Assembly (NCBI GenBank): GCA_030688365.1
Contig: JAUYIE010000003.1
Coordinates: 30,417 to 94,416, forward strand
DNA: 64,000 nucleotides
Direction: 5' to 3'
DNA from: a bacterium
GTDB lineage: Bacteria; Patescibacteriota; Patescibacteriia; JACQRZ01
The notes under the pieces are model-generated. The model saw only the letters and a program-made list of their open reading frames with translations, did no database searches and was not told the origin of the DNA. Of this stretch, positions 8,578 through 32,489 are shown piece by piece (position 1 is the first letter of the stretch; every line of letters starts with the position of its first letter). The translations under genes were made by a program, and so were the position numbers.

Positions 8578-8652
8578 TGGTGCTCTCGCCAGGAGTCGAA
8601 CCTGGATTGCAAGATCCGCAATCTTGCGTCCTATCCATTGAACGACGAGAGC
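8578..8652 (-). tRNA. tRNA-Arg, anticodon read as GCG.
   Basis: Hand-folded cloverleaf on the minus strand: GCTCTCG-TC-GTTC/AATGGATA/GGAC-G-CAAGA/TTGCGGA/TCTTG-CAAT-CCAGG/TTCGACT/CCTGG-CGAGAGC-A-CCA. It has a GTTCGA T-loop and an encoded CCA. Confidence 0.75.
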
Positions 8653-9174: not shown

Positions 9175-9266
9175 TGGCGGAGAGGGAGAGATTCGAACTC
9201 TCGAGGAGCTTTTACACCCCCAACACCTTAGCAGGGTGCCGCTTTAAACCACTCAGCCACCTCTCC
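9175..9266 (-). tRNA. tRNA-Ser (GCU), class II with a long variable arm, 92 nt.
   Basis: Minus strand: GGAGAGG-TG-GCTGAGTGGTTTAAAGCG-GCACC/CTGCTAA/GGTGT-long variable arm-GAGAGTTCGAATCTCTC-CCTCTCC-G-CCA. The anticodon loop is CU-GCU-AA. Confidence 0.8.
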
Positions 9267-12543: not shown

Positions 12544-12550
12544 ACAGTTA

Positions 12551-13254: not shown

Positions 13255-13728
13255 TTATGATGATTTTATGTCACGTTGATTCTCACCGTGGTAGGCACCA
13301 CCTGTATCAACAATCAACGAGAGTTCCGAAAGTCGTTGTGCCGATGCGCTATCTTTTTCGTGGGGCAGACGATTACGTCGTTCAGTTGCTTCCATTTCCA
13401 GTCTATCTGCTTGTGCTTTTTCTAATGCTTCCCATTCTTTTTTTGTCGGTTCTTTTTTCCAAATCCGCAAACGAGGACGCGTACCGGATTTTGCAATGTT
13501 CAAAACAAAAAAATGAAATGGCTGACCATTTATCTTCAAAAAAGCGACGGTGCCGGCAATCCCGGCAATAATAATGCTTCCCAAAATAAAATAAACGGTA
13601 TCGACGACTTTATATAAAATGAACATGAGACCAAACCCCGCGAGAATGATAAGAAATTGACGAACGCTAAGAAACCATAATATCTTATCTTCATTTTCAA
13701 TAAATTGTGGAACGGTAAACTTTTCCAT
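13255..13728 (-). CDS. PrgI/VirB3-like small 2-TM T4SS protein.
   Basis: 157 aa. The N-terminus MEKFTVPQFIENEDKILWFLSVRQFLIILAGFGLMFILYK and a second TM segment resemble PrgI-family proteins found upstream of VirB4 in Gram-positive-type T4SS. Confidence 0.5.
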   Translation of the reverse strand: MEKFTVPQFIENEDKILWFLSVRQFLIILAGFGLMFILYKVVDTVYFILGSIIIAGIAGTVAFLKINGQPFHFFVLNIAKSGTRPRLRIWKKEPTKKEWEALEKAQADRLEMEATERRNRLPHEKDSASAQRLSELSLIVDTGGAYHGENQRDIKSS

Positions 13729-15908: not shown

Positions 15909-18698
15909 TTAGGTTTCATCATCATCATCTACTGGTTCTGTAGCACCGCCATCTTCTGTGCTATCACCAAGATAATACGAATCAAAGTCTCTTCCGGATC
16001 GTTCGCTAACCACTTTTTGGATTGCTTTAGCAAATTTCACATTACTATTTGTTCCTGGTTTTGCGTTATCTTGACCCTCTTTAATCGTCGCTCGTCTGTT
16101 ATCCTTACCTGTCGTCCTCATCACCGCACGAAGAATAATACGCATAGACGGTTTGCTGTGTTTGCTGTCCATCTTATGTACTTCATTTAACATATCAGGC
16201 TTGTTCGCAATGGCTTCCAAGATCGCTTTGGCATACTCATTGTCATAATTATTGGCCTCAAAGCGTTTTTTATCGGTTTTTTCAATCAATTTTTTACCAT
16301 CTTTTCCCGCAAGGATTTCCTTAAACGTCGCGAGATTGACTGCTGCTTCGTTTGGATCTGACCCAAAACTCCCATCCTCCTCACACCCAAACGCCGCCTT
16401 CCACCCTTGATCTAACTGATCTTGTTTGGTAGTATTTACTGTTTCTATAAGTGTCTTGGCATACGTACTAAAATACTTATTATATGTTCCTTTCTTTTTG
16501 TTAATACCTGTTCCGCTTTTGATGTCAAGCTTTTGTAGCTTTTGATCTCCGTTTTTGTCAGTAATCATTCTCCCTTTTGTTCTAAAATTTCCGATTCCGT
16601 TTATCATGCTTTCATAACACGCTTTAGCTCGTGGTGTATTTTTAAGAAGTGCGGTATCAAATCTTGACTCATCTACTATGGCAAACGCGGCTTCACCAAA
16701 CTCATCGTCACTCACACCACCAATCATACCTCTGATGGCGTCAGCATTTTGATTATTCGGGTCAAGACTGCCATCTTTATATGCTTCAATACGTTGTTCT
16801 AAAGTCATACCAAACTGCGTATGTTCTCTGCCGATAGTGGACACAAACGCACTTTTCAATTTTTCATCTCCGGTTCCTTTTAATACTGCCAGGTCTTTAG
16901 CTATTTCTGCTGAACTCCCATATTTACCTTTTTTTGCATACGCAAGAATAGCACCATGTCGTTGTGCCGCAGTAAGTGAAGGATCATATCTTCTTTTGGC
17001 AAGATCTTCGGCAGAACGGTTGCCATCATTTTTTTCTTCCTCTGCCGCTTCATCGTATTGGTAATATTTAGCAGCATTTGATAAGTCTCGTGCACCAGTT
17101 TGCGCAAAACCACTGATCTCATTGCCATATATTCCTGCTGCTACCAAGGGATTCATACTGGCAGCCGACGCTACAAATTTTCCTGCTTCCATCCCATATC
17201 CAGCACCAGATACTGCAGCTCTTTTTGTTTGTAACCACTTTATTTTCCAATATTGTTTGTTCTTTTCTTTTTCATTCCCCTCTTGTTGCGCTTTCTTAAG
17301 TTCTCTTTCTGCTGCCTCTATTTCTGTTGTATAACCAGCTTTTATATTTGTGCGTCCATTTTTGGTTAACACGCCAGCACCGACAGCTTCCGCCCCCTTT
17401 GCAAGCAATTCACCCGGTTTTGCAGCCAAGTTGGCTCCCTTCTCTGCCACCCATCCAATACCAGCCGTAACTCGTTGTGCGTCACGATTTACACCTTTTT
17501 TGCGTGCTTGTTCAAGATTATTCCACACTGCAGCACCTCTATCTCGTGCCCAGCGCATTGGTGAAGGCACAGGAGATTTTCCTTTTGCCCAGTTCATAAT
17601 AGCGCCACTTGCCGCGCCTGCCATCTTCCCCCCTCCGGCTCCCAATTCACTTGCCGCCATCAATGTCGCAACCAACATGCCAATACCCAAGAAATACCCG
17701 ATCACCCCCTGATACGTGCCGATTTCCGTACCGCCGGCATTTAAGCCATCCGGTATACCTTCTTCATTGACGTCTTGGCTTGAAAGCAATCCTGCCGTCG
17801 TTGTCTTGTTGATATCAGTTACCCCATTATTGACTTGCGAAACGACTGCCAAAGAAAGCCACAGAAAAAATGCGGCAACCGGCCCTAACAATACAAGATT
17901 GATAAAACTCTCCCACCATTTCTTTGCGTATTCCTGCCCGCGAGGAACCACATTGAGCATAAACGCCCAGGGTGAAAGCACGACAAGAAACCATAGACCG
18001 ATAATACGCATGATAAAAAACATTGTAAGAGTACTCACCACTATCAACGCAACAAGAATAAACACGAGTGCCAATATAAACGAATATGCATTCCCTTGAA
18101 ACTTGTCAGTATCACCCAGTCCGACAATGGCCATAAATTTTGGAACACCAAGAAGGGTAGCAAAGTTCCCCCCTCCCGCAGATGAAAAAGCAGCAACGAA
18201 CGTATTCATTATGACCTGCGACACATCAATCACAAATCCAGCAATTGTCTTAGAAAAATTTACCAATATCGCCGCCATGATAAACGCCGGCAACATTGTC
18301 CTGTAACTATATTTTTCCTGTTGCAATATGGTACCAATAGCGATAGCAAGTAATAAAAATACAAAAAACATATTTGCCATATCACGCATCACTATCCATC
18401 CAAGCGTCGCGGCTGGTGAAGAAATAAAATCATTATATTGCGCAACGCGTAGCAACACTTGTATGACCACCAAAAGCAAACGACCAAACAACAGCGATAA
18501 TCCGCCTGCAACAACACCGACTGTCATTTCGGCGGTATTTGTCGCGGCCGTACCTAGCCAACCCCAGATATTTGCCGCAGCAAACGTTCCTTGAGATATA
18601 CTAAAAATACCGACTCCAATAGCAAAAAATACCCCTAGCACGAGCCAGTGTGAAAAAAGCGACTTTGAGAGCCGTTTGCACACGTCTTTGAACTTCAT
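15909..18698 (-). CDS. VirB6/TrbL-like polytopic membrane protein of 929 aa, with a large hydrophilic C-terminal extension of about 600 aa.
   Basis: The N-terminal roughly 330 aa have at least 6 hydrophobic helices in the VirB6/TrbL arrangement. The remainder is hydrophilic and rich in Gly/Ala/Lys. It is the first gene of the operon. Confidence 0.5.
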   Translation of the reverse strand: MKFKDVCKRLSKSLFSHWLVLGVFFAIGVGIFSISQGTFAAANIWGWLGTAATNTAEMTVGVVAGGLSLLFGRLLLVVIQVLLRVAQYNDFISSPAATLGWIVMRDMANMFFVFLLLAIAIGTILQQEKYSYRTMLPAFIMAAILVNFSKTIAGFVIDVSQVIMNTFVAAFSSAGGGNFATLLGVPKFMAIVGLGDTDKFQGNAYSFILALVFILVALIVVSTLTMFFIMRIIGLWFLVVLSPWAFMLNVVPRGQEYAKKWWESFINLVLLGPVAAFFLWLSLAVVSQVNNGVTDINKTTTAGLLSSQDVNEEGIPDGLNAGGTEIGTYQGVIGYFLGIGMLVATLMAASELGAGGGKMAGAASGAIMNWAKGKSPVPSPMRWARDRGAAVWNNLEQARKKGVNRDAQRVTAGIGWVAEKGANLAAKPGELLAKGAEAVGAGVLTKNGRTNIKAGYTTEIEAAERELKKAQQEGNEKEKNKQYWKIKWLQTKRAAVSGAGYGMEAGKFVASAASMNPLVAAGIYGNEISGFAQTGARDLSNAAKYYQYDEAAEEEKNDGNRSAEDLAKRRYDPSLTAAQRHGAILAYAKKGKYGSSAEIAKDLAVLKGTGDEKLKSAFVSTIGREHTQFGMTLEQRIEAYKDGSLDPNNQNADAIRGMIGGVSDDEFGEAAFAIVDESRFDTALLKNTPRAKACYESMINGIGNFRTKGRMITDKNGDQKLQKLDIKSGTGINKKKGTYNKYFSTYAKTLIETVNTTKQDQLDQGWKAAFGCEEDGSFGSDPNEAAVNLATFKEILAGKDGKKLIEKTDKKRFEANNYDNEYAKAILEAIANKPDMLNEVHKMDSKHSKPSMRIILRAVMRTTGKDNRRATIKEGQDNAKPGTNSNVKFAKAIQKVVSERSGRDFDSYYLGDSTEDGGATEPVDDDDET

Positions 18699-18828: not shown

Positions 18829-20175
18829 ATGAGTCAAGTTAACAGTAAGGACTGGATTGGGAAGGTCTTTACAATTTTTTTCGCTATGAGCATCATAGCA
18901 ACTTTGAGTGCTTGTGCCCCTGTCGGCACGAACACGGATACACTTTCTCAATCGCTTATTACAACAAACGATTCTGTTCAAACGACAGGAAATACGAATG
19001 ACAGCATACAGACACCTTCTACACCTACCGTTCCTACATCTACTACAAATTCTTCTACCACTACCACAGGAAGAGACCCGGCATTTATGGCGTTATTGGA
19101 TCATCCTGGCATTTCACCAGACGACATAGATCCAATATATGCAAAGAGTGATCGGTATTCGGGACCACCAAAAACCAGTCCGCCGTTGATAAGGACTCTT
19201 GGTCTTCAACTGGCGAAAGAGTTACAAAACAGACTATTGGACAAATGGGGGGATATTGGACCCTTCTGTATATGCCCAAAAGAAGGAAGCTATTATTGTA
19301 GGTCAGATGATGATACACTCACTATATCAGCGATTGAGAGCAGTAAAACACCATATTTACCAGACAGAACCAATTGGTTTTTTTATAAAGAACCGGGTGG
19401 TGAAATGAAAAACACGATCGTTACATTTACGAAGGATCAAAAGGGTGATGAGATCGCTACGCCAATATACGACTTAGATAAAAAAGTATCAGAGTTACCT
19501 TTTGTATTGCGTCGAGACCGATTCTATAGTTATTTTCTAACATATAATAAAGGTACAGAGTATAGTCTTTCAAATAACTACTGCATGATTCAAATGACGC
19601 CGCAAGACACACGCCATGTGTTTCGGATGTATCCGCTTGTAAAAAATGCATGGTCGCTGTTTGTCGCATTGAAAAAATATTTTAATGAGGTGACGACATT
19701 TCCAGCGCTCGATCCAGAGATCACAAACATTCCAGATCCGAATTGTGGAGATGAATATTCCGTCAGCACTGTGATGGAAAGTAAATATCTACAAGTAATG
19801 TTGAATACAATGGCCGTCAAAAAGCCATTAAGTTCCCAGGATATTTCGGGAACATATGATATTCAAGTCCAAAAAGGCGATCCACCTACAACCTACACAG
19901 GAAAAAGGTGGATTAAGAAATTCTGTCTTGTGCCTGGTATTTTTCTTACGAAACACTCGGGACAGTCTCAAATAGAGCGACCTAGATTTGAGGTAGTTAC
20001 AAAAGATGGCCAAATTCAAGATATTTATGATTATTTAGAGATAGTGAATTTGAAACAGTACACGGAAGTAGCCACTAAAATAAGTGATACTCCTTTGGAT
20101 AGTATTTTTGAAGGAACAGTAGATTACGCAACAATTTGGAGCTATACTCGTTATTTTTCCCAGGTTGTAAATTAA
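18829..20175 (+). CDS. Lipoprotein of 448 aa with signal peptide and lipobox LSAC. Hypothetical.
   Basis: MSQVNSKDWIGKVFTIFFAMSIIATLSAC lipobox. A GGAGGT RBS lies 7 nt upstream. A Thr/Ser-rich linker follows the Cys. Confidence 0.55.
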   Translation: MSQVNSKDWIGKVFTIFFAMSIIATLSACAPVGTNTDTLSQSLITTNDSVQTTGNTNDSIQTPSTPTVPTSTTNSSTTTTGRDPAFMALLDHPGISPDDIDPIYAKSDRYSGPPKTSPPLIRTLGLQLAKELQNRLLDKWGDIGPFCICPKEGSYYCRSDDDTLTISAIESSKTPYLPDRTNWFFYKEPGGEMKNTIVTFTKDQKGDEIATPIYDLDKKVSELPFVLRRDRFYSYFLTYNKGTEYSLSNNYCMIQMTPQDTRHVFRMYPLVKNAWSLFVALKKYFNEVTTFPALDPEITNIPDPNCGDEYSVSTVMESKYLQVMLNTMAVKKPLSSQDISGTYDIQVQKGDPPTTYTGKRWIKKFCLVPGIFLTKHSGQSQIERPRFEVVTKDGQIQDIYDYLEIVNLKQYTEVATKISDTPLDSIFEGTVDYATIWSYTRYFSQVVN

Positions 20176-20199: not shown

Positions 20200-20234
20200 C
20201 TGCTATATTAAATATGAAAATATAGCAGTTTTTT
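20200..20234 (+). terminator. Rho-independent terminator for the lipoprotein gene.
   Basis: CTGCTATAT-(11 nt loop)-ATATAGCAG followed by TTTTTT, located between convergent genes. Confidence 0.5.
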
Positions 20235-23200
20235 ATTGTACTATTTCACATGTCTCCACGTTTTTGGCTCCCCAGTTGTCAGCAATCTCCACACAAATAC
20301 GTTTGCCTTTGGCGCGATCGTTAAAATATGTATGGACAAACTGATGTTCACCGTGCGGAGCTAAGAAAGATGTATAGTTGTTTTGCGATAGCAATGCCGT
20401 CAGTGGACGATCATTATCACTATAATACACTGACTGTTTACCATGACCATCATCCCAATCAATGGATATCATACGCAAAGGTTTTTGTTGATCGTCTACT
20501 GAACTATTGAAATGAATCTCAACAGTTTTTCCGTTTGGCTTGGAAACAATACTAAAACCATCAACAACACTTGTCTTTGCACCATTTGCGCGCAGTACAC
20601 GGGGTTGCACAGCACATCTTCCGGCTTTTCTTTCGATAGTATCCGTAACTGTTTGTGTGCCGTTTAGATTTTTTGTAGCTGCACAATATGCATTGGTAGG
20701 GGGCGTATAGAGAGGAGAATCTCCAATCTGGATATATTTTTTATATGTTGTATCCCAGTGCCACTCTGTATACCCTGTTGCAAAATACTTTTTGAGAAGC
20801 GCTGTACCATTACCATTCCGCTCGCTCAATTCTGCTGCACGTGAACCAAAACACTTCCCCTCCGAACTGCAATCAGAAGTTGTCGTACATATTTGGCCAT
20901 TGCGTGAACCCCCAAGACAGATAGAACTTGCTCTACGTATTGCTTCTACCGACAACGACTGCGCATGTGCGATAGACAAGTCATCGTCGTTAATAATATC
21001 TATTGGTTGTGCCCATTGTTCCGGTTTACTTGTCGGTGGAATCAAAGACATATACTTTGAAATCTCACCAGAAGAAGACAGCACACCTGGAGGATCTTCA
21101 TATTCAATAAAGGGCGCACCTGAACGATCTTTCGGTGTGGTTGGATCCGCAAGTTTTGACTGCCACGGTACTGCTTCACCGTCCTCTTTTACAACCTGCA
21201 CAATATTCGTACAATAGTCCCTTACGTAAATAGTAATAGACACGAACATATCCATCATCTGTCTGTCGTCCCAATTCCATGTGGAATCATCACAATATCT
21301 CCATTGCCAATATTGGATAGTTCCGTCCGGTGCGGGTACCGGCTTTATGCCTATAAAATCACGTCCGATACCACCGCTCGTTTGTGCCTGACATCCGGCG
21401 CCAAAAACTGTATCAGGAGTTACATCTGTAGCTTGCGCGCTGGCGGCCACCATCGTAAATTCTGTTTTCGCGGTTGTAGAAATCACCGGTGGTGGAGCCA
21501 ACCTTCTCAACTCCCTGTACTGTGCATAATCGGGCTTCGGTAGTGCAGTTAATATTGGTCGCGCATCCTTACCGGTAAATGCCCATCCATCCTCATTAAT
21601 AGTTCCACTGCCCCCACCATATGTAACGGTAACAAAGTAAGGACCCTCACCTATACGAGGCATGTATGTTTTGGTCCAATCTTGTCCGGGAAGTGTGTTA
21701 CGAGTACGATGTTCTATCGTATAATCTATTTGCGTGATTTGATCCATGTTTATACTTTTTTCAAAGGCATTGGCTGGTGTTAATTTCATACCAGTATCTG
21801 CGTGTTCTTTTGCACCATCGCTAAGAATCAGCACTGAATCATCAGTTGATACGTTCAATCCGCTTCTTAATTGTGTGTTAGGCTCCACATCAGAATAAAT
21901 GTTGGTGACCGACGCTATACTGACCAACGTTTGTGAAGATAATGCACCAGGTTGTCCAAGGTCAAGTATGACTTCTATTTCTTTTGCTGATTCACCCTCA
22001 ACTGGTGTCGTTGCAAACAACTTTATCACCGCCTTGTATGTTCCCCCTGACGGAGTAAATTGTGTAACTTCAGGAACAATACTCAATCCCAAAGGTGTGC
22101 CTGACATACCTGCAGCAGGTGAAAATGATAGCCACTGGAGATCGCCCGTCCCACCTCGAGATATTGTTTGGATAGATTTTAATTCTGCACGCCAGTGGTA
22201 GACTGTCTCACGTGGAATCGATCCAATGATAATCTGCTTTCCATGGCGAATATCTCCTGATGTCATAGTGATACTGGAAGGTATATCCATTGCCGGCCGA
22301 ACAACCAATGAAACAGGAATTATTGATTGCAAGGATGTTTCTACAGGTGGTGAATCAGAGGTTGGAAAACAACCGCTTGCTGTGTGAGTAGTTGTCGTAA
22401 CTTGTTGTCCTTTGACCACAACAGAACCTTGATATGGTGCAAGTTTGAAAGAAGTATTTTTTGGATCCGAAATATCTGTAACGAGAAATTTATCCTTGAT
22501 GTCTTGGGGGTGGATGAGCTCCGTCTGCACCGCTAATGGATCGTAAGAAGATATGCATGTAGATCCGCCATTAAAAATAGCTCCATAACATTTATTAACT
22601 ATATCACCACCATCACCGCTGACAATACGAGTCGGTGCTGCATCCTCGCTTGTTCCAACTCCGCTTTCTTTTTCTTTAAGCCACGACATGTATGAAGATG
22701 TATCAGTTGTAGGACGTGGACAGTTAATACCTCCTCCACAATACGGAGCCGGACTATTGGAAGATGTCACTGAATCAATACCTAAAGATGTACCAGTGAA
22801 ATCTCGCGTCGTAACCGTTGTGGTAGTCCGACAACATGGCGGGGTGTCATCCGAACCGGGTGAGCATGTTTCAAATGTTTTTATCACCTTACCATATCCT
22901 AGTGGTACCTTATTTGATTTAGGATCATTCCCTTCCACTGTATTCATTAGAGAAAGTGAGAGTGTTTTTGAAAGATTCACTGAATAATTTTTAGGAACAT
23001 ATTGCGTTTCCGGGATACCAACATCAGTACGGAGTTTTTGATGTGGTTGAACAAGATCGTTATTGCAAAGTGGCAATGTCGCAGTTACTTTCGTTTTGTC
23101 AGTCGTACAATTGGTCGCTACCGGTGTCTTAAAAAGATCAGGCACGTCAATGTAGAGCATCTCACTCTTACTAACTCTTTGTTCCGTAACATTTTTTACA

Positions 23201-26200
23201 ACGATATAATACTGTATACCACTCACGGTGTTGGTGCCTGTCGCATTAGATGCTGAAGGAATCGTTATCTGAAAATTTTGATCACAATTCATTTCTTCCT
23301 TAAACTTATAATCAAAACTTTCAAATTTTTGATTAAATTTCCCTTCCGGGATACCGTGCCAAATACCGTCACCCAGGTAATTATACACCACCCGTAAGGT
23401 ATATTTACCTGCTTTATCAGCACATAATGAAGGAGAACTCTTCTGTCCATCAATAATGATACCAATCGGAGTATGGGCATCATAAATAGGTGACATACCA
23501 TCTCTCAAATGGTTTTCCTCATCAACACGATCTTCATTGAGATTTTTACTTAAATTGGTATACCACACTTTTGCAAAGAAAGTATCTTGCACTGGAGAGT
23601 CATCACGCGAAAATTCCGGCGCAATAGTTGGTGTAGCTGTTGGTGTTTCTGTTGGTGTCTCATCTTCAGCGGACAAATCAAGAGTAACTTTGACAGTCTT
23701 GTATGTTTCACCACCCCATACTCCTTCCAGAGGACCCACAGCATAGACATTGACATAGCCCACGACATCTCTATTAATAAATCCCAAAATATCCGATCGT
23801 ATCCCTATCTTCAGAGAGTCACCATCTTTTCCACTATCTTGTGATAATACAATCCAATCACTCACAAAACCGGCCCCCACAGATATTTTACCCGTCCGCG
23901 CTGTATCAACGACCGCTCGCCATTGAAGTTGCTCCGGATGATTTTGTTGTGTTGGATGATCTGTTGTACTAGACACTTTCACACTGCGTGTTTCATTGGC
24001 AAGTGCCTGATTATAATTAAATGTTACATTCTCCGTTGAAACAGAAAGCGCGGGTTTTATCACCTGGTACTCCTTACCTGATACAGCCGCGATGCGATAC
24101 GTAGGCAATCTCTCCGACAAATTTTGTGCAATATGTTCAAAGACGCGTGCGGTATTTGAAAATGCCAGCTTAAGTGAATTCATAATGGAATCCACAAAGA
24201 CAAATGTCTTATGTATACCGCTATCTGCTGTGTATCCCTCTACAAGTAATGTAAACGGCTTACTTATCGGCTTTGTCCCTCCTTCAAAAGTACAATATAC
24301 ATAAGGGTGCTGATATGCAGGTATCAGATGATCATTTACAGAGTTTGATTGTGTTCTTTCTTTCACTGCTTTTACCTTAAATTCAATATAGTTTTGAGAA
24401 TTCGCCTTAGCGACATATGTCTTATCCGCCTCATACTGTGAATATGAGCGACTGGTATCCAAAACCCCAAAAGTATCTAAATGTTCATACTGCTTCACCA
24501 AATAGTCCTCATCAGGATTTGTTGTAGTATCATCCAAGCCACATGTCACACTCGTCCCCGAAGGTACATTGGTAACACGCACCAGCTGTGCAGCACCTTC
24601 TTTTGTAGCAACCAACGTATTATCGCCATTTTCAGTGAGTTGGCCGGTCCTCCCGCCAAATAAAATCTTTGCTTGTGAAGATATCGTTTGACCCCCTGAT
24701 GTATATGGTTCATCTACTAATTCAAACTCCGCATTTACTGCCGGCATAGCCACACCGTTAAGTTTACAAGTAATCACAGCTGATCCTATACGTGCTTGCG
24801 CACCACTCTTTGCACTCGCATATAATGGCATACCGTTTTCTTTTATATCAGCACTAAAGGCAAGCTGACTCAATATAGTAGTAGGTACACCTCCCGTATC
24901 GCATCTAAGCTTATATGCTTCTAATTCAGTATTATTAAATAATACGTCATGTTCACCACCTTTATATACAAGTACTTGCCCCCATGTACCGTAGGCGAGC
25001 GTCCCAGAAAGATATGTCGGTACATGTACGGGAGATGTCCTGGTGGTCGCATCAACAACTTTTATATGCGCACCCTGGGCAATCAAATCATCGGCATTGA
25101 TTGCATTACTAATATCAAATGCAGTGTCGCGTAGTTGCATGGTTGGCCAGTTTATATCCTTGAAACGGAATATAGAGGTGTCTCGTGTTTTCACACCATA
25201 CCCAGTGATGACGTCTGTTGAAGCGGGAACATACGGGGTCATACCTTGTGCACCACCCTTGCTTTGGACACAGTAATACAACGGTTTAGGACCTTGATAT
25301 GCCGGTAATGCATTTTGTCCTTCCAGCACATTCACTTGACCTTGAATATACGAGACGGGATACCAGTTGAGGCAGTATCCTTGATATCCGGCATCGTGCA
25401 CATTATTTATTTTACTCTGGAACAGACTGTTATTCTTTGGATACGATTCTAAACAATACCCATACAATCCATTTTGACGATCAAGATTTTTATCTTGATA
25501 ATAACATGCATCTACCGGAATGGCTTTGGATGACACTGCTTCTCCGGACGCATTATATCCCTGCAAAACATTCCATGACCGTTGTGTCGCATCTGGCGCG
25601 TCCTTTTGTGGATACAAACGACATGAATTTCTAATCCAATCATCATTGTTCCACCCAGTGATCAAGCTGTTCACTAGACGTCCTCCTTGATCTTTGGAAG
25701 CGTCTGCTTCAGATTTCTCATCCCATGCAAACGTACTATCATGTCCACCGGTTACAGTAAACGAGTCATTACCAGAAAGCGCGGGGAAAACAAAATTGGG
25801 TCGAGCAATACCCGAAAGAGTTCGTGCGACAGCCACACCTCCTCTAGAATACTCACCAAGTAAGGCCGAATCGCGAACATACGGCGGGTTATAAAATTCC
25901 GCACATGGTTCATCAGTGCTTCCCCATTCATCACAAGGACGACGTTCAAGACATATTTCTTGTGATTTAGTGGAATCTTTCAGATCAGGAACAACAATAG
26001 ACGAAGTACATGCAAGCCACACCTTACACTGACGATTCAAACCTACCTGATACAACGCGTTCGCGTCCTGTGCTGATCCTCCTGCGAGGAGGTTGATACC
26101 ACCTTCTGGATCTTTGGTTGGATCGTTGTAAATATCATGGGATGTATACACATCTTTCCCTTTTTCTGCCAAAGGATCATGAAAGAGTAAACATCCCACC

Positions 26201-29200
26201 GCAGGGTTCACTTTAGAGCAGGTGTCACCTCCGATTTTGTTTGGCGCTGTTTTTATATAATATGCAGATTGACATGCGCTTTTTCCTCCACCTCCTTGAC
26301 CGTAGTTATCACGCAATGATCCATCGTTCTGACATTCAGGATCAATAATGGCGCGACAATTATTTTCTGATTGCGGACAAAGCGCGGTCATGCCACTTTG
26401 GACAACAGGGATATCTCTAGCTGGCGTTTGATTACAATCAACGATACCCTCACTCTCGTCTTCAAGGATCCAACCCGGATTACGCCCACTGTCACCTTTG
26501 GACCATTTGCACAATTTAGTGCCTGGATCTTTAAAGTAATATAATGATTTAGTAGCAGGATCTTGATATTCACTACATCCTACTTCTGTTGATTGACACT
26601 GTGCTGCCTTTGTATCCTCATGACTTGGATCAAACTTATAATATACTGTTTTCCACTTCTCCTTAGCTTCGCCGATTTCAACACCTGTCTCTTGTACCTT
26701 TCCATTAGAATCTAAAGATGGAATACCAAATGCAGTACACGATTGCGCATTTTTACTACACCGCTTGTCGAGATCAGGTACAAAATATTGCGTATATGCC
26801 GTTCCATTAGCGGGATGTACGGTAAACTTGTCACATCCGACGAATTCCATTTTGCAAGATTCATCCAATGTCGTGAACGCCACCGGCTTTCCTTTTGTAT
26901 CGCTATACAACCTACATCCAAGCTGTGCTCCCAGCCGTGTTTTATCAATCGCGGCAGTACACGATGATGGCACGTTGAGTTTTGTGTCAATAGCATATAC
27001 AACATCTTGCACTTCACTCACAATCACATCATCAATGAAAAACTCGCCACTATCATGCGTGATATGCAAAACAGCCACAAAAGAATCAGCAGTCGTGTGT
27101 ATGTTTGGCAATGCAAATCTTACCCGCTCCCAATCATCGTCTTGGGTATTCAAGAGAAACTCGCCTAACCCATATGAGCCAGAGAGCTCTGGCGAGGATA
27201 GTGATGCGGATACTGTCGCATTGGACGCGCCTTTTACATAAAAAGTTACGATATAACCATACCCGTTATGCAACATTACATTACCATGAGATATTTCAAT
27301 GTCGTCACTTGTTTTCTTCTCAACACGCAGACTGTCACTGTCAGCGACCAGACCACTACTTGATGGCGAAAGTTTACCTGTACTACTCTGCCAACCACCT
27401 ATCGTACCGTCTTCAAAGGTAGATATCAGTCCGGTCGCGATATTACCTGAACGCGTCCCCTCAAAACGACGACATCCTATTGCACTCGGAGAACACGAAA
27501 TGCTGTGCGATGGAGATATCACATATTCCGCGCCTCCCGTTGTACGTCTCATTTCACTACAATCATCTGTCTGATATACGATTAACGCGGGATCTCTATA
27601 AAACGCGTATCCATCACGATTGATATATTCACGGCAAGAAAAAGTATTGGTAAGCGGATTGTCCCGCTGCTCGGAAAATGTTGATTGATCACACTCGCAG
27701 TCAGACGCCCTGTCCGGATCCTTTGGATCTGGCGCACACACAGGCGCATCATTTGCATCTGTCTTTAGATTGACGACAGACAACTTAAATCCACTCGTAT
27801 CTGATCCATACCATGAATAGAATGGCGTTGGCTCTGCCGGAGTTTTTTCACATGCTTGGACGGTGCTGAAATACTGTTTCGTTTCATTGGACAGGTTGGT
27901 AAACTCTGCGCATCCATCCGCTTGTGCAGAACATTGTCGTGCTTTTTCAGGAATAAAAGCCACTGAATGCTCGCTACTATCAAATTGATTGGCGATTTTT
28001 GTATATACTTGAAGACCCGCACATGATGATTCACACTCTTGCGGATTTTTACCGGCTCGGTCTTCTCCCCCATCGTCAGAACTATAATATTCGCATCCTT
28101 GATAGTCTTCTGTACATTGTGTGACAAATTGTTTACATGCTGTTGAGTCAAATCCGTCTTGTTCAAAACCGCATTGGAGGGTGACTGGCGCAATTTTGTA
28201 ATAATCATCTTTATTGCTCCTATCATTGGTAACCAATTGACATCCTTCATCTGACTGATCACACTCTAACGCACCGACTTTTGAATTGAAATATTCTTTC
28301 TCGTCAGTATCAGGAAGATTTGGTTTATATACCCACGGATGGACAGAATCTGTGCTGCGTGTATTGCTATATACCTGACATCCCTTATTTTCATTGGTAC
28401 AGATGGATCCCCCCGAATTACTAAACGCAGGAATAGTAGAAGTAAGCGCGGTTAGTGTAGTACCTTTGTTTGTATTAACAAATGATCTACACGAATCAAA
28501 TTGTTTGTCACAGTTTTCTGCATCAAACTGCCAACTTGGTTGCTCTTGGATACAATATCCATATCGGCCTTGCACACAATTTCCATTCCCATCACTTTGT
28601 AGACATGTTTGTTCATCAACACATGTGTCTTGACGACTCATTTGCGGAACTCTGACATCATATTGGTTATTATTGCCACTCTGAAAATCACTACCACAAT
28701 CAATAACACCGTCTCCATTTGTATCAAATATACACTCAACATCGTTGTCAGTTAAAGCGTTTTCCGGACCATATCCCTCTAACGCGCATCGTGTTGGAGG
28801 CAACTGTAAAATCCATGTATCATCCACTAACCCAAAAAAAGGAGAATCTTCGTCATTAAATCCATCAATCATATCACCCAGCGTACAGCTTTTTGCCTTG
28901 GTTCCATTATCACAAACCGTCGGATATTTTTTGATATACAACGCTGCGTATTCCCACGTAACAGGAATGATACGGTATTTTCGCAGGACTACGAGAGAAT
29001 CATACGGAAGATTCTCCTTTGGGCTGGGTTGAGCTGAGTTACTTTGAAAACCAAACAAATCTGACGTATGCAAGTATCCTTTGCGTATAGCACTTCGGAC
29101 AGTCATACCGGTCTGTAATGCCGTTGCCATACCATCACTCATGACGCGCGCGTCCGGATTACCTATTGTCGGTTCTGCCGACAGACGACTCATCAAGTCA

Positions 29201-30621
29201 ATGTTGTCACGTTGGCGAGACCGTACTGTTGGAACAAATTTTACTTTCTTGTTTCGCGCCGCGGTAACACCAACATATTGAAAAGTATCAACGCTATAGA
29301 TACCACTTGCCTGCGTCTCCACCAAACCACTCTTAAACCAATCAGTTGCTTTAGAAAGTAATGATTTTTTAAACGAGTCCATGACCACTGATCCCAAGTC
29401 TACCATTAAATTACCTGTCAACTGCGATGGCTTTGCTGATTCATCAATGGCTTTTGCTGCCAAATATCCTGCGATACTACCGGGAGTTTTGATACTTCCA
29501 CTTACCGTCTCAACCACATTTTTAAACGGAGTTTCTTCTTGTCGTTTTTTCCACGCAACATCCTCTCCTGTATTAATCGCATCTAGGTATGCCAACTGTG
29601 CATTGAACATAATCCCCAACTGGGTAGAATTTGGATCAAATAAATCACCTAAAGCCCGCCAACCCTTTCCACCAAAATCGGATGCGCTTGTACCTGTCTT
29701 TTGTATAAGATCTCCCCAGTTTGTCACTGCCTCTGTTAAGGAACATACGGGTTTGCGGACCGCAGAAGAAGAAACATCAGGAAATAATGTCAAACCTATT
29801 TTAAGTGTCAATTCAGGGGATGGTGAACAAATCACCTTATCCAAAAATTGTTTTGCTTCACTACTAATAGCACCATTTCCACCTGGTCCAAGTTCTTTCT
29901 GGTGTGTTTGAAGTGCATCTAAATATGATTGAGCGTCCTTGGCAACCTTGTCATGCTTTTCGTCAATCGCCGCGCATTTGTTGAGTGACGCTTTATATCT
30001 GGTATCACACTGGTCATCCGGAATTGTCCCATAACATTCATACTGTTCATTGTCTGCGTCTTTGCGACATTGATCTGCTTGATATACAAGCTCTTTTAGA
30101 TCTTCCTTCATGCGGTCGGCAGTAGAATCATGTTCATATTGTGTAATAAATCCATCCACGATCCCTTCCACCAATATTCCCCCCGCGCCACTTGCCGCGT
30201 CAATAAGTGATTGACCCAGTTCCTGAATATTAAAAAGAGGTTGCTGACCTTTGAGCCCTTGTCCGATCCAGTCAAATGTTTGATCAAAAAGCTGGGAGGT
30301 AAATGATCGTGCAAAATAAATCACCGATTGGTAGGTAGCGGCCTCTAACGCTTTTTTAAGCGTATCCCATACCCACTGTAAATCGTCAGGTGTACTTGAA
30401 GTCACATTCACAGGAGCTGACGTACTCTTGCCAACAAGACTTATAGTTTTGTTCACCCCAGTCTTTATTAACTCAAATGACTCTCCAGACGGTATAAAAT
30501 CCAAACCCGAAGCCTCCGCACGTGGAACATCAGTTCTCATTGAAATAAATAAAACTCCCACAATCACGATGCCCGTAATCATTCCCCTCAATAGTCGCTT
30601 CATGGAAGTAAAATCTTTCAT
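20233..30621 (-). CDS. Giant secreted Cys-rich surface protein of 3462 aa.
   Basis: Single uninterrupted ORF with an N-terminal signal/TM segment (MITGIVIVGVLFISMRTDVPRAEA). It has a very high Cys, Gly, Thr, Ser and Asn content across many beta-rich segments. A tightly coupled upstream gene sits 2 nt away. Confidence 0.8.
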   Translation of the reverse strand: MKDFTSMKRLLRGMITGIVIVGVLFISMRTDVPRAEASGLDFIPSGESFELIKTGVNKTISLVGKSTSAPVNVTSSTPDDLQWVWDTLKKALEAATYQSVIYFARSFTSQLFDQTFDWIGQGLKGQQPLFNIQELGQSLIDAASGAGGILVEGIVDGFITQYEHDSTADRMKEDLKELVYQADQCRKDADNEQYECYGTIPDDQCDTRYKASLNKCAAIDEKHDKVAKDAQSYLDALQTHQKELGPGGNGAISSEAKQFLDKVICSPSPELTLKIGLTLFPDVSSSAVRKPVCSLTEAVTNWGDLIQKTGTSASDFGGKGWRALGDLFDPNSTQLGIMFNAQLAYLDAINTGEDVAWKKRQEETPFKNVVETVSGSIKTPGSIAGYLAAKAIDESAKPSQLTGNLMVDLGSVVMDSFKKSLLSKATDWFKSGLVETQASGIYSVDTFQYVGVTAARNKKVKFVPTVRSRQRDNIDLMSRLSAEPTIGNPDARVMSDGMATALQTGMTVRSAIRKGYLHTSDLFGFQSNSAQPSPKENLPYDSLVVLRKYRIIPVTWEYAALYIKKYPTVCDNGTKAKSCTLGDMIDGFNDEDSPFFGLVDDTWILQLPPTRCALEGYGPENALTDNDVECIFDTNGDGVIDCGSDFQSGNNNQYDVRVPQMSRQDTCVDEQTCLQSDGNGNCVQGRYGYCIQEQPSWQFDAENCDKQFDSCRSFVNTNKGTTLTALTSTIPAFSNSGGSICTNENKGCQVYSNTRSTDSVHPWVYKPNLPDTDEKEYFNSKVGALECDQSDEGCQLVTNDRSNKDDYYKIAPVTLQCGFEQDGFDSTACKQFVTQCTEDYQGCEYYSSDDGGEDRAGKNPQECESSCAGLQVYTKIANQFDSSEHSVAFIPEKARQCSAQADGCAEFTNLSNETKQYFSTVQACEKTPAEPTPFYSWYGSDTSGFKLSVVNLKTDANDAPVCAPDPKDPDRASDCECDQSTFSEQRDNPLTNTFSCREYINRDGYAFYRDPALIVYQTDDCSEMRRTTGGAEYVISPSHSISCSPSAIGCRRFEGTRSGNIATGLISTFEDGTIGGWQSSTGKLSPSSSGLVADSDSLRVEKKTSDDIEISHGNVMLHNGYGYIVTFYVKGASNATVSASLSSPELSGSYGLGEFLLNTQDDDWERVRFALPNIHTTADSFVAVLHITHDSGEFFIDDVIVSEVQDVVYAIDTKLNVPSSCTAAIDKTRLGAQLGCRLYSDTKGKPVAFTTLDESCKMEFVGCDKFTVHPANGTAYTQYFVPDLDKRCSKNAQSCTAFGIPSLDSNGKVQETGVEIGEAKEKWKTVYYKFDPSHEDTKAAQCQSTEVGCSEYQDPATKSLYYFKDPGTKLCKWSKGDSGRNPGWILEDESEGIVDCNQTPARDIPVVQSGMTALCPQSENNCRAIIDPECQNDGSLRDNYGQGGGGKSACQSAYYIKTAPNKIGGDTCSKVNPAVGCLLFHDPLAEKGKDVYTSHDIYNDPTKDPEGGINLLAGGSAQDANALYQVGLNRQCKVWLACTSSIVVPDLKDSTKSQEICLERRPCDEWGSTDEPCAEFYNPPYVRDSALLGEYSRGGVAVARTLSGIARPNFVFPALSGNDSFTVTGGHDSTFAWDEKSEADASKDQGGRLVNSLITGWNNDDWIRNSCRLYPQKDAPDATQRSWNVLQGYNASGEAVSSKAIPVDACYYQDKNLDRQNGLYGYCLESYPKNNSLFQSKINNVHDAGYQGYCLNWYPVSYIQGQVNVLEGQNALPAYQGPKPLYYCVQSKGGAQGMTPYVPASTDVITGYGVKTRDTSIFRFKDINWPTMQLRDTAFDISNAINADDLIAQGAHIKVVDATTRTSPVHVPTYLSGTLAYGTWGQVLVYKGGEHDVLFNNTELEAYKLRCDTGGVPTTILSQLAFSADIKENGMPLYASAKSGAQARIGSAVITCKLNGVAMPAVNAEFELVDEPYTSGGQTISSQAKILFGGRTGQLTENGDNTLVATKEGAAQLVRVTNVPSGTSVTCGLDDTTTNPDEDYLVKQYEHLDTFGVLDTSRSYSQYEADKTYVAKANSQNYIEFKVKAVKERTQSNSVNDHLIPAYQHPYVYCTFEGGTKPISKPFTLLVEGYTADSGIHKTFVFVDSIMNSLKLAFSNTARVFEHIAQNLSERLPTYRIAAVSGKEYQVIKPALSVSTENVTFNYNQALANETRSVKVSSTTDHPTQQNHPEQLQWRAVVDTARTGKISVGAGFVSDWIVLSQDSGKDGDSLKIGIRSDILGFINRDVVGYVNVYAVGPLEGVWGGETYKTVKVTLDLSAEDETPTETPTATPTIAPEFSRDDSPVQDTFFAKVWYTNLSKNLNEDRVDEENHLRDGMSPIYDAHTPIGIIIDGQKSSPSLCADKAGKYTLRVVYNYLGDGIWHGIPEGKFNQKFESFDYKFKEEMNCDQNFQITIPSASNATGTNTVSGIQYYIVVKNVTEQRVSKSEMLYIDVPDLFKTPVATNCTTDKTKVTATLPLCNNDLVQPHQKLRTDVGIPETQYVPKNYSVNLSKTLSLSLMNTVEGNDPKSNKVPLGYGKVIKTFETCSPGSDDTPPCCRTTTTVTTRDFTGTSLGIDSVTSSNSPAPYCGGGINCPRPTTDTSSYMSWLKEKESGVGTSEDAAPTRIVSGDGGDIVNKCYGAIFNGGSTCISSYDPLAVQTELIHPQDIKDKFLVTDISDPKNTSFKLAPYQGSVVVKGQQVTTTTHTASGCFPTSDSPPVETSLQSIIPVSLVVRPAMDIPSSITMTSGDIRHGKQIIIGSIPRETVYHWRAELKSIQTISRGGTGDLQWLSFSPAAGMSGTPLGLSIVPEVTQFTPSGGTYKAVIKLFATTPVEGESAKEIEVILDLGQPGALSSQTLVSIASVTNIYSDVEPNTQLRSGLNVSTDDSVLILSDGAKEHADTGMKLTPANAFEKSINMDQITQIDYTIEHRTRNTLPGQDWTKTYMPRIGEGPYFVTVTYGGGSGTINEDGWAFTGKDARPILTALPKPDYAQYRELRRLAPPPVISTTAKTEFTMVAASAQATDVTPDTVFGAGCQAQTSGGIGRDFIGIKPVPAPDGTIQYWQWRYCDDSTWNWDDRQMMDMFVSITIYVRDYCTNIVQVVKEDGEAVPWQSKLADPTTPKDRSGAPFIEYEDPPGVLSSSGEISKYMSLIPPTSKPEQWAQPIDIINDDDLSIAHAQSLSVEAIRRASSICLGGSRNGQICTTTSDCSSEGKCFGSRAAELSERNGNGTALLKKYFATGYTEWHWDTTYKKYIQIGDSPLYTPPTNAYCAATKNLNGTQTVTDTIERKAGRCAVQPRVLRANGAKTSVVDGFSIVSKPNGKTVEIHFNSSVDDQQKPLRMISIDWDDGHGKQSVYYSDNDRPLTALLSQNNYTSFLAPHGEHQFVHTYFNDRAKGKRICVEIADNWGAKNVETCEIVQ

Positions 30622-30623
30622 AT

Positions 30624-31499
30624 CTATTGATTACTACTATTGGCCACCGCCTTTAAAAATAAATCCTTAAGTGTCGCGTCATCAATCAATGAAAGTTGTG
30701 CTTCCGGAATCAATCCTGAAGCACGCACGAGATCACGAATCTGTGCCGGTGTATATTGCGAGTAGTCTGTATTGATAGTTGACGATGCTTTTGTATCAGT
30801 TCCAGATATCTCACTCATCCCGACCGCACCATTCCCAGAGGATGGTATGTTGGCAAGAGGTGCAGGAGACACTGGTGACGATTTTGTATTCGCAATAGTT
30901 TCTTTGTATGTCTGTAACAAAGTAGCATCATCAAATTGTGCAATCTCCTGATCTGTCATACCTTGTTCTCGAAGCATAGATCGCAGTTCATTAGGAGTTG
31001 GATCAACGCTGGCCGATAACAATGCCTGGTCAGTAGCCGTAACCCCCACATTGCTGACAACACCAGGTAGCTCTCCCGCCAATCCCCCTTCAGTTTTTGT
31101 TGTAAGATCTTGTCTGAAACAATTTTGTCCGTCGGGACAATTTGGATCGTGATTGGTAGCGATCTCTGTTTTGTCATCAAACCCATCACTGTCCGTATCT
31201 TTCAAATATGGACTTGTTTGATAGACATACAATTCGTCAAAATCACTAATAGTATCTTCATCAGAATCTTGAGATTTCAGACTCTCCATCCGCATCGCTG
31301 TTTGCATCTGTTCAGTCATATCAACCTGCGCCACTGCAGACACAGTCTGATCAGGAGCAAATGGACTGTGAACACTTCGTACAAGACTCAACGATCCAAC
31401 TGCAACACCTATAACCGACAAAAAAATAATAATCCCCATGACCACATTTTTTGGTGGAGTTGGTGTTTGTGTTTGTGTGTTTATTTCATCTTCATTCAT
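30624..31499 (-). CDS. Membrane-anchored protein of 291 aa with calcium-binding-like acidic repeats (DTDSDGFDD, a thrombospondin type 3-like motif) and two repeats of about 40 aa. Co-transcribed with the giant gene.
   Basis: TM segment VVMGIIIFLSVIGVAVGSLSL. DTDSDGFDDKTE motif. Internal repeat DQEIAQFDDATLLQTYKETIANT / AQLSLIDDATLKDLFLKAVANS. Confidence 0.5.
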   Translation of the reverse strand: MNEDEINTQTQTPTPPKNVVMGIIIFLSVIGVAVGSLSLVRSVHSPFAPDQTVSAVAQVDMTEQMQTAMRMESLKSQDSDEDTISDFDELYVYQTSPYLKDTDSDGFDDKTEIATNHDPNCPDGQNCFRQDLTTKTEGGLAGELPGVVSNVGVTATDQALLSASVDPTPNELRSMLREQGMTDQEIAQFDDATLLQTYKETIANTKSSPVSPAPLANIPSSGNGAVGMSEISGTDTKASSTINTDYSQYTPAQIRDLVRASGLIPEAQLSLIDDATLKDLFLKAVANSSNQ

Positions 31500-31697: not shown

Positions 31698-32489
31698 TTA
31701 ATCCAAAAGTTGGTGTGTAAGCTCAATCCATTGTTGAACAGATAAATCTTGAGCTCGAGCCGTTGACTGCACACCACACCTCTCCATTGCGTCAATAATA
31801 TCCTGTCTCAAAAGAGATGTACCTTCAGCAATATTTGATACGAGTAGTTTACGTTTTTTTGCAAAACCACAGCGAGCCAACGAAAGGATTTTTTCAGGAT
31901 CGTACGTTTGCACATTGGTTTTAACTGGCGACAGCTGCACAACTGCACTTTGTATATTTGGACGAGGGCGGAAGGATGCAGATGAAACATCAAAACACTT
32001 TTTTACTTTAGCATATAACTGTACAGACAAAGATAATAAACTCATCTCTCCGGGACCGGATACGAGGCGTTGTGCAACTTCCTTTTGAACCATAAGTACC
32101 GCGCGAGATGTGTGAGGTGTTACTTGTAATATCATTTTAATCAATATGGATGTAATATTGTATGGAATATTTGCAACAACAAGATACTGGTTGGTCCCTA
32201 ATTCATTCACAATGACCGGATAACACTTCAACGCATCTCCATAAACGATAGATATCGCTGGATTTGCAACGCTCAACTCGTTTAATGTCTGAATCAAATC
32301 TTTATCCAGTTCAATAGCTATAACCCTTTTTGCCTTCTGTGCGAGTAATGAAGTCATCGCTCCTTGTCCTGGACCTATCTCAATTACCACTTCATCAGGT
32401 TTAATGTCAGCTTGATTTACAATCTTTTTGACGATATTTTTATCAATGAGAAAGTTTTGCCCAAATCTGCGTTGTGCAATATGACTCAT
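31698..32489 (-). CDS. rsmA: 16S rRNA (adenine1518/1519-N6)-dimethyltransferase RsmA/KsgA.
   Basis: GQNFLID motif; SAM-binding VIEIGPGQGAMT; 263 aa. Confidence 0.85.
   Translation of the reverse strand: MSHIAQRRFGQNFLIDKNIVKKIVNQADIKPDEVVIEIGPGQGAMTSLLAQKAKRVIAIELDKDLIQTLNELSVANPAISIVYGDALKCYPVIVNELGTNQYLVVANIPYNITSILIKMILQVTPHTSRAVLMVQKEVAQRLVSGPGEMSLLSLSVQLYAKVKKCFDVSSASFRPRPNIQSAVVQLSPVKTNVQTYDPEKILSLARCGFAKKRKLLVSNIAEGTSLLRQDIIDAMERCGVQSTARAQDLSVQQWIELTHQLLD

Follow-up and report, generated by a model that had tools for sequence, protein, structure and literature searches.

The stretch of DNA analysed here (the window) comprises 64,000 nucleotides (nt) of a bacterium affiliated with Patescibacteriota (lineage JACQRZ01; assembly GCA_030688365.1, contig JAUYIE010000003.1, positions 30,417 to 94,416). 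It encodes a very large protein, referred to below as the giant, and directly upstream of it a small membrane protein, the partner; both genes lie beside a T4SS (type IV secretion system) locus. The giant is a member of a large, unnamed and strongly constrained family of secreted, disulfide-rich proteins. The two genes are as follows, with all positions being those of the window:

20233..30621 (minus strand): giant gene, 3462 amino acids (aa) plus stop codon, with an ATG start and an uninterrupted open reading frame (ORF)
30624..31499 (minus strand): partner gene ('TSP3p'), 291 aa, with an N-terminal transmembrane (TM) anchor of 22 aa and two putative thrombospondin type 3 (TSP3)-type repeats at aa 78-112

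A first-pass annotation of the window, prepared from the letters alone, had proposed a single ORF of 10.4 kb separated by 2 nt from the upstream ORF of 291 aa, and both statements hold. The Logan contig SRR13727534, an independent assembly, is 100% identical to the window across 24,480 bp and carries the same unbroken ORF of 3462 aa, so that an assembly artefact as its source was rejected; this contig, together with hundreds of homologues of similar length, shows that the ORF is neither a chance occurrence nor the product of a frameshift. The protein is deposited at NCBI as MDP2655997.1, 'hypothetical protein [bacterium]'. An AT-rich spacer of 200 nt precedes the partner gene on its 5' side and practically none separates its stop codon from the ATG of the giant, an arrangement that fits one transcription unit. 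Scans for promoters and terminators gave counts no higher than those in shuffled sequences and were uninformative.

The giant contains 8.8% Ser, 8.4% Thr, 7.9% Gly, 7.5% Asp, 4.7% Asn and 2.6% Cys. The initial description of an extremely Cys- and Asn-rich protein was therefore too strong: Asn is unremarkable and Cys is raised, to 2.8 times its background frequency elsewhere in the ORFs of the window (0.94%), with 57 of the 90 Cys residues falling in aa 570-1790, where they account for 4.7% of the sequence. If the full-length proteins among the 150 best matches are compared, the giant of the window has in fact the lowest Cys content, the family median being 3.6%.

An exhaustive HMMER search with aa 1-1200 as the query, run against 1.84 billion representative proteins with clusters at 50% identity, retrieved 1182 clusters at E<=1e-3, 708 of which reach E<=1e-30. 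The length of family members is almost always 2400-3600 aa (median 2820 aa), and in the source databases they are named 'hypothetical protein' or 'CBM-cenC domain-containing protein'. A word-index search performed poorly for this family, with no matches for aa 1-1200 and two for a profile of the core domain. GTDB species, each represented by one genome, were scanned with patterns from a 36-member alignment (a scan with a single protein gave no matches), and of the 575 relatives confirmed in this way 79 loci were kept; the locus-level GTDB counts given below rest on these 79. All titles among them that name a lineage belong to Patescibacteria (Uhrbacteria, Magasanikbacteria, Falkowbacteria, Kuenenbacteria, Paceibacter, Nomurabacteria and Parcubacteria). 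Many loci are titled 'uncultured Gammaproteobacteria bacterium', yet have an identical gene order, of the CPR type (CPR, candidate phyla radiation), and these titles look like placeholder names. The closest relatives come from Uhrbacteria/ABY1-type metagenome-assembled genomes, with identities to the giant of the window of 44-47% (L003/P0002) and 37% (L002), the other kept loci ranging from 22 to 33%. A 377-aa fragment of the core domain (P0156, 46% identical) was found on a 1.1-kb contig titled 'Sedimentisphaerales bacterium'; it is probably a binning error and not a family member from outside Patescibacteria.

From the N- to the C-terminus, the following parts of the giant were distinguished (all on the minus strand):

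30511..30621 (minus strand): aa 1-37, putative Sec-type signal peptide with the n-region KRLLR, a 15-aa h-region (aa 14-28) and a candidate cleavage site between AEA and S
29215..30510 (minus strand): aa 38-469, N-terminal region, predicted with low confidence to consist mostly of long helices
28762..29214 (minus strand): aa 470-620, domain with the highest conservation within the family in the 36-member alignment
27442..28761 (minus strand): aa 621-1060, the first of two Cys-rich segments, also beta-rich; C-x6-C-x2-[FY] units are at aa 704, 741, 787, 836, 897 and 1043
28699..28725 (minus strand): aa 633-641, DTNGDGVID, a conserved D-x-N-x-D-G loop (consensus DxNxDG)
27052..27441 (minus strand): aa 1061-1190, CBM4/9/22-type beta-sandwich (CBM, carbohydrate-binding module) inserted in the Cys array
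25222..27051 (minus strand): aa 1191-1800, the other Cys-rich segment, whose units are at aa 1256, 1288, 1342, 1415 and 1468
21172..25221 (minus strand): aa 1801-3150, fast-evolving distal region, aligned by single-sequence phmmer in the two closest relatives only
20236..21171 (minus strand): aa 3151-3462, conserved C-terminal domain with the pattern FA.SYG.W.W ... QLPL....VDWGDG ... H.Y ... DNWG.C

What had been annotated as an N-terminal signal or anchor stands in so far as the hydrophobic stretch at aa 14-28 and the AEA-S site are present; as for the anchor, the N-terminus looks, from its residues, like a cleavable Sec signal peptide instead. N-termini resembling signal peptides were called in 111 of 119 full-length homologues, and 101 contain an AxA-like motif no more than 12 residues away. 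Conservation is moderate in aa 60-250 and family-wide from about aa 250 onwards. It peaks in aa 470-620, where the giant of the window agrees with the family motif PY.SLV.LRKYRI.PV.WE.AALYI ... LVD..W.L..P...C and where G524, R547, R550, P553, W556, E557, A560, W603 and C612 are invariant. An AlphaFold2 (AF2) model of aa 460-650, built from 31 sequences, describes a small helical domain (predicted local distance difference test, pLDDT, 84; predicted template modelling score, pTM, 0.74), for which Foldseek found no structural neighbour in PDB or BFVD (all E>1). The loop at aa 633-641 that follows this domain is a candidate Ca site of the EF-hand/dockerin type judging by its residues, with a weak match to EF-hand_5.

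Within about aa 570-1800, almost all Cys residues are invariant or at least 90% conserved among 36 diverse members. The motif C-x6-C-x2-[FYW] occurs eight times in the giant compared with 0.24 expected occurrences and a maximum of four in 5000 shuffles, and C-x6-C occurs 11 times versus 2.6 expected, the median of the homologues being 14 units. This short, degenerate C-x6-C-x2-[FY] motif is the only repeat-like element of the protein; the internal repeats of the classical giant-adhesin type, for which a search had been suggested, are absent, as self-BLASTP detected no tandem repeats and Tandem Repeats Finder (TRF) returned just two trivial short arrays. On these grounds an RTX/Bap-type repeat adhesin was rejected. 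The second Cys-rich segment, matched by profile in 72 ORFs of the 79 loci, closes with a conserved SCRLYP...GYCLE.D...C..W.PV.

The beta-sandwich between the two Cys-rich segments is seen more clearly at family level, with CBM_4_9 matched in 10 of 15 homologues (best 3.4e-20) and the family profile matching CBM22 of Xyn10C among PDB sequences (1.5e-10). In an AF2 model of aa 240-1400 the mean pLDDT is 70.8, exceeding 85 across most of aa 790-1290, and Foldseek aligned this model to CBM22/CBM4 structures in PDB with E from 4e-8 to 1e-6 and TMt 0.6-0.7. Compared with the closest relatives, the core is mostly 40-65% identical, and aa 1801-3150, a region without a Pfam match, are mostly 21-39% identical. 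The C-terminal domain is again conserved, its profile matching 53 ORFs of the GTDB loci; it resembles PKD at motif level only (PKD at 0.05 in one of 28 members), and profile searches gave no significant PDB or Pfam match.

A catalytic family for the giant was not found in Pfam, NCBIfam, PADLOC or PDB, in keeping with the earlier remark that no catalytic motif is recognisable. Pfam searches with six sub-segments of the giant at E<=1 returned nothing beyond the CBM, a PDB sequence search with the giant returned nothing, and SLT, CHAP, NlpC and M23 catalytic domains are absent from the giant of the window and from 15 homologues. The sortase or S-layer anchoring signals that the annotation had suggested looking for are likewise lacking in the giant: there is no LPXTG signal, the sole near-match being the internal NPLTN at aa 988, and an S-layer protein was rejected for want of an SLH or CWB2 domain.

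In two Paceibacteria-type genomes (L014, 10001-20211, and L031, 9500-19320) the giant is encoded in three ORFs of about 1485, 220-270 and 1550-1670 aa, with breaks at matching positions. In L014, the genome for which N-termini were inspected, all three ORFs have hydrophobic N-termini of their own, which suggests modules that are exportable separately and must assemble outside the cell. The middle ORF of the split giants has a borderline cohesin match (6e-5 and 1.5e-3; cut-off 24.1 bits), and a dockerin was matched in two of 15 full-length homologues (2.5e-8), so that Ca-dependent contacts of the cohesin/dockerin kind may be used for assembly in some lineages.

An orthologue of the partner lies directly upstream of the giant in 60 of 61 loci; this and the other synteny counts refer to GTDB loci with enough flanking sequence. 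The partner was rightly recognised as a membrane protein, given its 22-aa TM segment, which is followed by two acidic repeats, DSDEDTISDFDE and DTDSDGFDDKTE (the latter within DSDEDT...DTDSDGFDDKTE). Past the repeats there is a Cys pair, C121/C127, in CPDGQNC (CPxGxxC), and the C-terminal part holds two copies of a helical motif, P..R..L...G...E.L..I.D..L. The TSP3-like, Ca-binding character attributed to the partner holds at the level of the family: PF18884 (TSP3_bac) matches 46 of 58 orthologues (best 2.5e-13), and aa 78-112 of the partner in the window, which itself has no Pfam match even at E<=10, align to the PF18884 columns of the orthologues with acidic positions at least 90% conserved. 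Searches of PDB sequences with the partner gave nothing beyond the TSP3 repeats. In L033 (17949-24418), additional TSP3-partner paralogues and four single-TM proteins with 3-8% Cys are located between the giant and the T4SS genes.

The genes around the pair in the window are:

31698..32489 (minus strand): ksgA/rsmA, conserved upstream neighbour of the pair
18829..20175 (plus strand): 448-aa lipoprotein-like ORF with the lipobox LSAC, a Ser/Thr-rich linker and no known domain
15909..18698 (minus strand): VirB6-like protein, 929 aa, with eight TM segments in aa 1-350 and a hydrophilic tail of 580 aa
13786..15897 (minus strand): 703-aa conserved protein of the T4SS cluster (p703), without TM segment or known domain
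13255..13728 (minus strand): PrgI/VirB3-like protein (PF12666, 6.3e-8)
10666..13249 (minus strand): VirB4 in two ORFs, a TrsD-like N-part (12551-13249, 232 aa) and a P-loop ATPase (10666-12543, 625 aa)
10041-10652 (minus strand): 203-aa single-TM protein (p203) at the operon end
9307-10041 (minus strand): ComF-like protein, last in the operon

With a VirB4 ATPase, a VirB3/PrgI and a polytopic VirB6-like protein, the neighbouring locus agrees with the definition of a T4SS of the MPF-FATA type (MPF, mating-pair formation). The P-loop part of VirB4 matches P-loop_TraG at 2.6e-29, and the NCBIfam matches for TrsD and VirB4 are below the curated cut-offs, as is that of the VirB6-like protein to the MMCAP2_0566 family (1.2e-4). 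The split of VirB4 into two ORFs also occurs in the related loci examined. A small hydrophobic, pilin-like (VirB2-like) ORF is not evident in the T4SS operon of the window. The T4SS-like locus that had been annotated beside the giant is thus confirmed in its components (PrgI, VirB4, the TrsD-like part and the VirB6-like protein with its eight TM segments) and not in its contiguity, as the 448-aa ORF intervenes. Among the 79 loci this insertion between giant and VirB6-like gene is confined to the organism of the window, and the lipoprotein-like ORF is probably not part of the system.

Across the 79 loci the conserved order, on one strand, is ksgA, partner, giant, VirB6-like, p703, PrgI/VirB3, TrsD, VirB4 and p203. 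The annotation had named co-occurrence with the VirB4/VirB6 operon as the test of its proposal, and such co-occurrence was strongly borne out from both directions. A VirB6-like gene is present downstream of the giant in 35 of 47 loci, and ksgA is upstream of the pair in 50 of 57. In the reverse direction, JGI metagenome contigs were scanned with an alignment of the TM domain of the VirB6-like protein, and domains of the giant family were found upstream of it, and on its strand, in 28 of the 31 loci that have 8 kb or more of upstream sequence and in 39 of the 48 that have 2.5 kb or more.

One further gene of the window bears on the Cys residues of the giant, namely the membrane-anchored DsbA-like oxidoreductase that had already been noted at position 44143:

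44143..44883 (plus strand): membrane-anchored DsbA-like oxidoreductase (Thioredoxin_4, 1.7e-30)

It is a candidate catalyst for the disulfides of the giant, encoded at a place not linked to the giant locus; a CPR-enriched DsbA/MdbA-like family is known (bioRxiv 10.1101/335083). An L,D-transpeptidase gene (44886-45662, minus strand), arranged tail-to-tail with the DsbA-like gene, carries a bacterial TSP3 repeat (1.4e-8), which makes this type of repeat common to at least two envelope proteins of the genome.

The giant is extracytoplasmic, as indicated by its signal-peptide-like N-terminus, invariant Cys residues, CBM and Ca-loop motifs, with a DsbA-like gene in the window. Its architecture and gene context suggest a function in adhesion or host attachment; the epibiotic lifestyle of the organism is an assumption taken from its phylum. 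On balance, we lean towards the view that the giant forms a secreted, disulfide-stabilised host-contact arm of the patescibacterial T4SS, held by the partner. By a similarly slight preponderance, the two-gene module would represent the conserved 5' part of a chromosomal MPF-FATA-type cluster in ABY1/Paceibacteria-type Patescibacteria. The giant may be described as a T4SS-associated surface component whose protein family is new and includes one or more domains of unknown fold.

We infer tethering by the partner, the orientation of the modules of the giant, binding to glycans or the host, and physical contact with the T4SS, and picture them as follows. The giant would be exported via Sec, its signal peptide probably being removed, and about 45 disulfides, mostly in short C-x6-C hairpins, would make the beta-rich region rigid and protease-resistant. 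The partner would stay membrane-bound by its TM helix and hold the giant, possibly through its Ca-binding TSP3 repeats, at the surface beside the VirB6-like channel. The machine-proximal stalk would be made up of the N-terminal third, which is conserved and comprises the helical domain, the Cys array and the CBM-type sandwich. The fast-evolving 1300-aa region with the conserved C-terminal domain would be the distal part, in contact with the surface of the bacterial host, where glycans would likely be recognised via the CBM. Such a protein would be the functional counterpart of the adhesins and pili by which other T4SSs make and hold cell-cell contact. Conservation at the base and at the tip, with variability in between, fits a protein with machine-docking and target-facing parts. 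Furthermore, the lack of a VirB2-like pilin in the operon and of PrgB-type adhesins in a survey of patescibacterial T4SSs (PMC12102498) leaves the contact function otherwise unaccounted for.

Several observations weigh against a host-contact arm of the T4SS. Most of them concern the gene linkage, which, read from gene order, appears strong rather than absolute. In 12 of 47 loci the order ksgA-partner-giant is kept with no recognisable VirB6-like gene within 4-8 kb downstream; the loci without such a gene nearby (L008, L039, L042, L048, L059, L062, L064, L065, L069, L075 and L077, several of them titled Magasanikbacteria) carry other genes downstream of the giant. Conversely, three of 31 VirB6-like loci lack a giant upstream, the pair is tied more tightly to ksgA than to the T4SS, and in the window itself giant and T4SS operon are kept apart by the unrelated 448-aa gene on the other strand. 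As to the protein, cleavage of the signal peptide rests on heuristic calls and not on a trained predictor, the Pfam match of CBM_4_9 (PF02018) to the giant of the window is marginal (26.1 bits with a cut-off of 25.9), the CBM fold serves in non-glycan binding too, and the invariant Arg, Glu and Trp residues in aa 470-620, in a domain of no known fold, may have a catalytic role.

The main rival explanation, which we regard as improbable yet deserving of serious attention, is that the giant and its partner constitute an adhesin or envelope scaffold independent of the T4SS, the shared neighbourhood being an old, origin-proximal block of genes. The 12 loci just mentioned agree with it, and so does a linkage to ksgA and to the partner (60 of 61) that is at least as tight as that to the T4SS; moreover, ksgA and replication genes have been reported near virB4, in an origin-proximal position (PMC12102498), and Peribacteria possess large Cys-rich extracellular proteins outside any T4SS context (PMC4736985). 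However, the same-strand adjacency to the VirB6-like gene persists among lineages whose giants are just about 25-30% identical, the recovery of 90% from the VirB6 side comes from an independent data set, and gene order around the ksgA-giant-T4SS block is otherwise poorly conserved.

It is rather unlikely that the giant acts as an enzyme after its secretion or as a factor that remodels the wall, i.e. a substitute for VirB1 or a degrader of the host envelope, with a catalytic centre in aa 470-620 and targeting by the CBM. This explanation would account for the invariance of R547, R550, E557, W556 and W603 in a domain without a known fold, for the presence of a CBM4/9/22 module, which usually accompanies glycoside hydrolases, and for the finding that the VirB1 homologues of Patescibacteria mostly occur apart from virB4 (PMC12102498). 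Set against it are the lack of any hydrolase, transglycosylase or peptidase match in Pfam, NCBIfam and PDB at the level of sequence, profile or fold, a disulfide-rich scaffold of 3000 aa that would be superfluous for an enzyme, and the fact that a protein-protein interface would equally show invariant residues. Finally, delivery of the giant into the host cell as a T4SS substrate or polymorphic toxin, to which the adjoining T4SS and the fast-evolving region might point, is very improbable and the polymorphic toxin was rejected, because the giant has a Sec signal peptide, its roughly 90 Cys residues, invariant in the family, point to a fold acquired outside the cell and are thus difficult to square with passage through the T4SS channel, its variable part is internal and its C-terminus conserved, the opposite of polymorphic toxins, and neither toxin domains nor Rhs/YD or immunity-gene signatures were detected (Pfam on the giant and 15 homologues, PADLOC).

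Returning to the host-contact arm of the T4SS, its most novel formulation, which we put forward as tentative, is that the giant and its partner are an unrecognised core extracellular organelle of the patescibacterial T4SS: a single-polypeptide, disulfide-locked docking arm that replaces the pilus in lineages of the ABY1/Paceibacteria type, with a base of new fold that docks on the VirB6-like channel and a variable distal part that sets the host range. If true, most uncultured CPR bacteria would for the first time have a candidate structure by which their essential T4SS is physically coupled to a host cell. The T4SS was found to be essential for epibiotic growth in Southlakia epibionticum, the sole species tested, in which a pilin array is present (PMC10633639), and a 2024 perspective called the role of the T4SS in Saccharibacteria 'completely unknown' (PMC11665869). 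The survey of patescibacterial T4SSs covers VirB4, TrsD, VirB3, VirB6 and pilin arrays, reports ksgA near virB4 as well as TrsD homologues adjoining virB4 and comF in ABY1 loci (both ksgA and comF were seen here too), and detected no adhesins such as PrgB (PMC12102498); neither its text nor the supplements examined mention a giant gene, a CBM or a TSP3 protein. With neither an adhesin nor a giant gene in that survey, the giant, which together with its fixed partner heads the cluster in a large proportion of ABY1/Paceibacteria-type genomes, becomes a concrete and testable candidate for the missing host-contact part. The fast-evolving region of the giant may be what determines host specificity. 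No description of the family or of its T4SS link was found in the literature, in a search of incomplete coverage. The family offers, in addition, a conserved domain unmatched among solved structures and a distinctive architecture of disulfide hairpins, the latter in organisms that are generally regarded as anaerobes. Should the link to the T4SS be positional only, there would still be a large, phylum-specific family of surface proteins that is unnamed in databases.

Other features of the window were recorded independently of the giant. A LOOT RNA (Rfam RF03000; 5345-5469, minus strand) scores 85.9 bits versus a gathering score of 46.4 and is flanked by ORFs of 518 and 240 aa that lack known domains. 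An oral Saccharibacterium as the source of the window, to which this RNA might point, was rejected in view of the Uhrbacteria/ABY1-type closest relatives. A tyrosine integrase gene (7392-8543, plus strand) at the distal end of the T4SS operon directly adjoins tRNA-Arg (8578-8652) and is near tRNA-Ser (9175-9266); the block at 2-8 kb has a lower GC content (0.37-0.39), and integrase, tRNA and low-GC block may represent an integrated element. An 841-aa protein encoded at 35127-37652 (plus strand) combines a MurL_N/MurL epimerase-like part with the middle and C domains of a Mur ligase, a call that derives from precomputed Pfam matches for the identical Logan contig.

Compared with known systems, the giant shares its size, surface location and Ca-binding motifs with RTX/Bap/SiiE-type and Ig-repeat adhesins. 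Unlike these adhesins, it has neither tandem repeats in DNA or protein nor a type I secretion system (T1SS) signal, and its rigidity would be based on disulfides, whereas theirs is based on Ca and Ig repeats. The CBM4/9/22 modules (PF02018; PDB 4XUP, 1DYO and 3P6B) resemble aa ~1061-1190 in their beta-sandwich fold and, by a weak signature, in sequence; in contrast to typical modules of this kind, that of the giant is placed within a non-enzymatic protein, between arrays of Cys hairpins, and its carbohydrate binding is predicted from resemblance. The large Cys-rich extracellular proteins of Peribacteria, for which a role in attachment was proposed (PMC4736985), are similar in their size class, their signal peptide and the proposed attachment, and in belonging to an organism with few other functions, so the general idea of Cys-rich attachment proteins is not new. 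They differ in having about 1655 aa and about 7% Cys, in being encoded in a 14-gene cluster and in lacking a link to a T4SS, and homology to the giant is not established.

Like the VirB2/VirB5 pilus, for which host contact has been proposed in Patescibacteria, the giant is extracellular, variable in sequence and linked to a T4SS. VirB2-like pilin arrays are known from Saccharimonadia and Microgenomatia (PMC12102498, PMC10633639); unlike such a pilus, a polymer of small pilins, the giant is one polypeptide with a completely different fold. The adhesins of Gram-positive T4SSs were compared on the basis of general knowledge and PMC12102498, and include PrgB/aggregation substance, PrgA and PrgC of pCF10, TraO of pIP501 and CnaC of pCW3. 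Homology of the giant to PrgB/AgI-II adhesins was not indicated by any Pfam, NCBIfam or PDB match. The giant is about three times larger than these adhesins and differs from them in being disulfide-rich, without LPXTG and equipped with a dedicated TM partner; it is also chromosomal and phylum-wide, whereas they are plasmid-borne, and the T4SSs of Patescibacteria, unlike Gram-positive conjugative systems, have no relaxase (PMC12102498). What they have in common is a large, Sec-exported surface protein whose gene lies directly upstream of the VirB6/VirB3/VirB4 channel genes, an MPF-FATA-type system without an outer-membrane core, and a presumed role in contact with the target cell.

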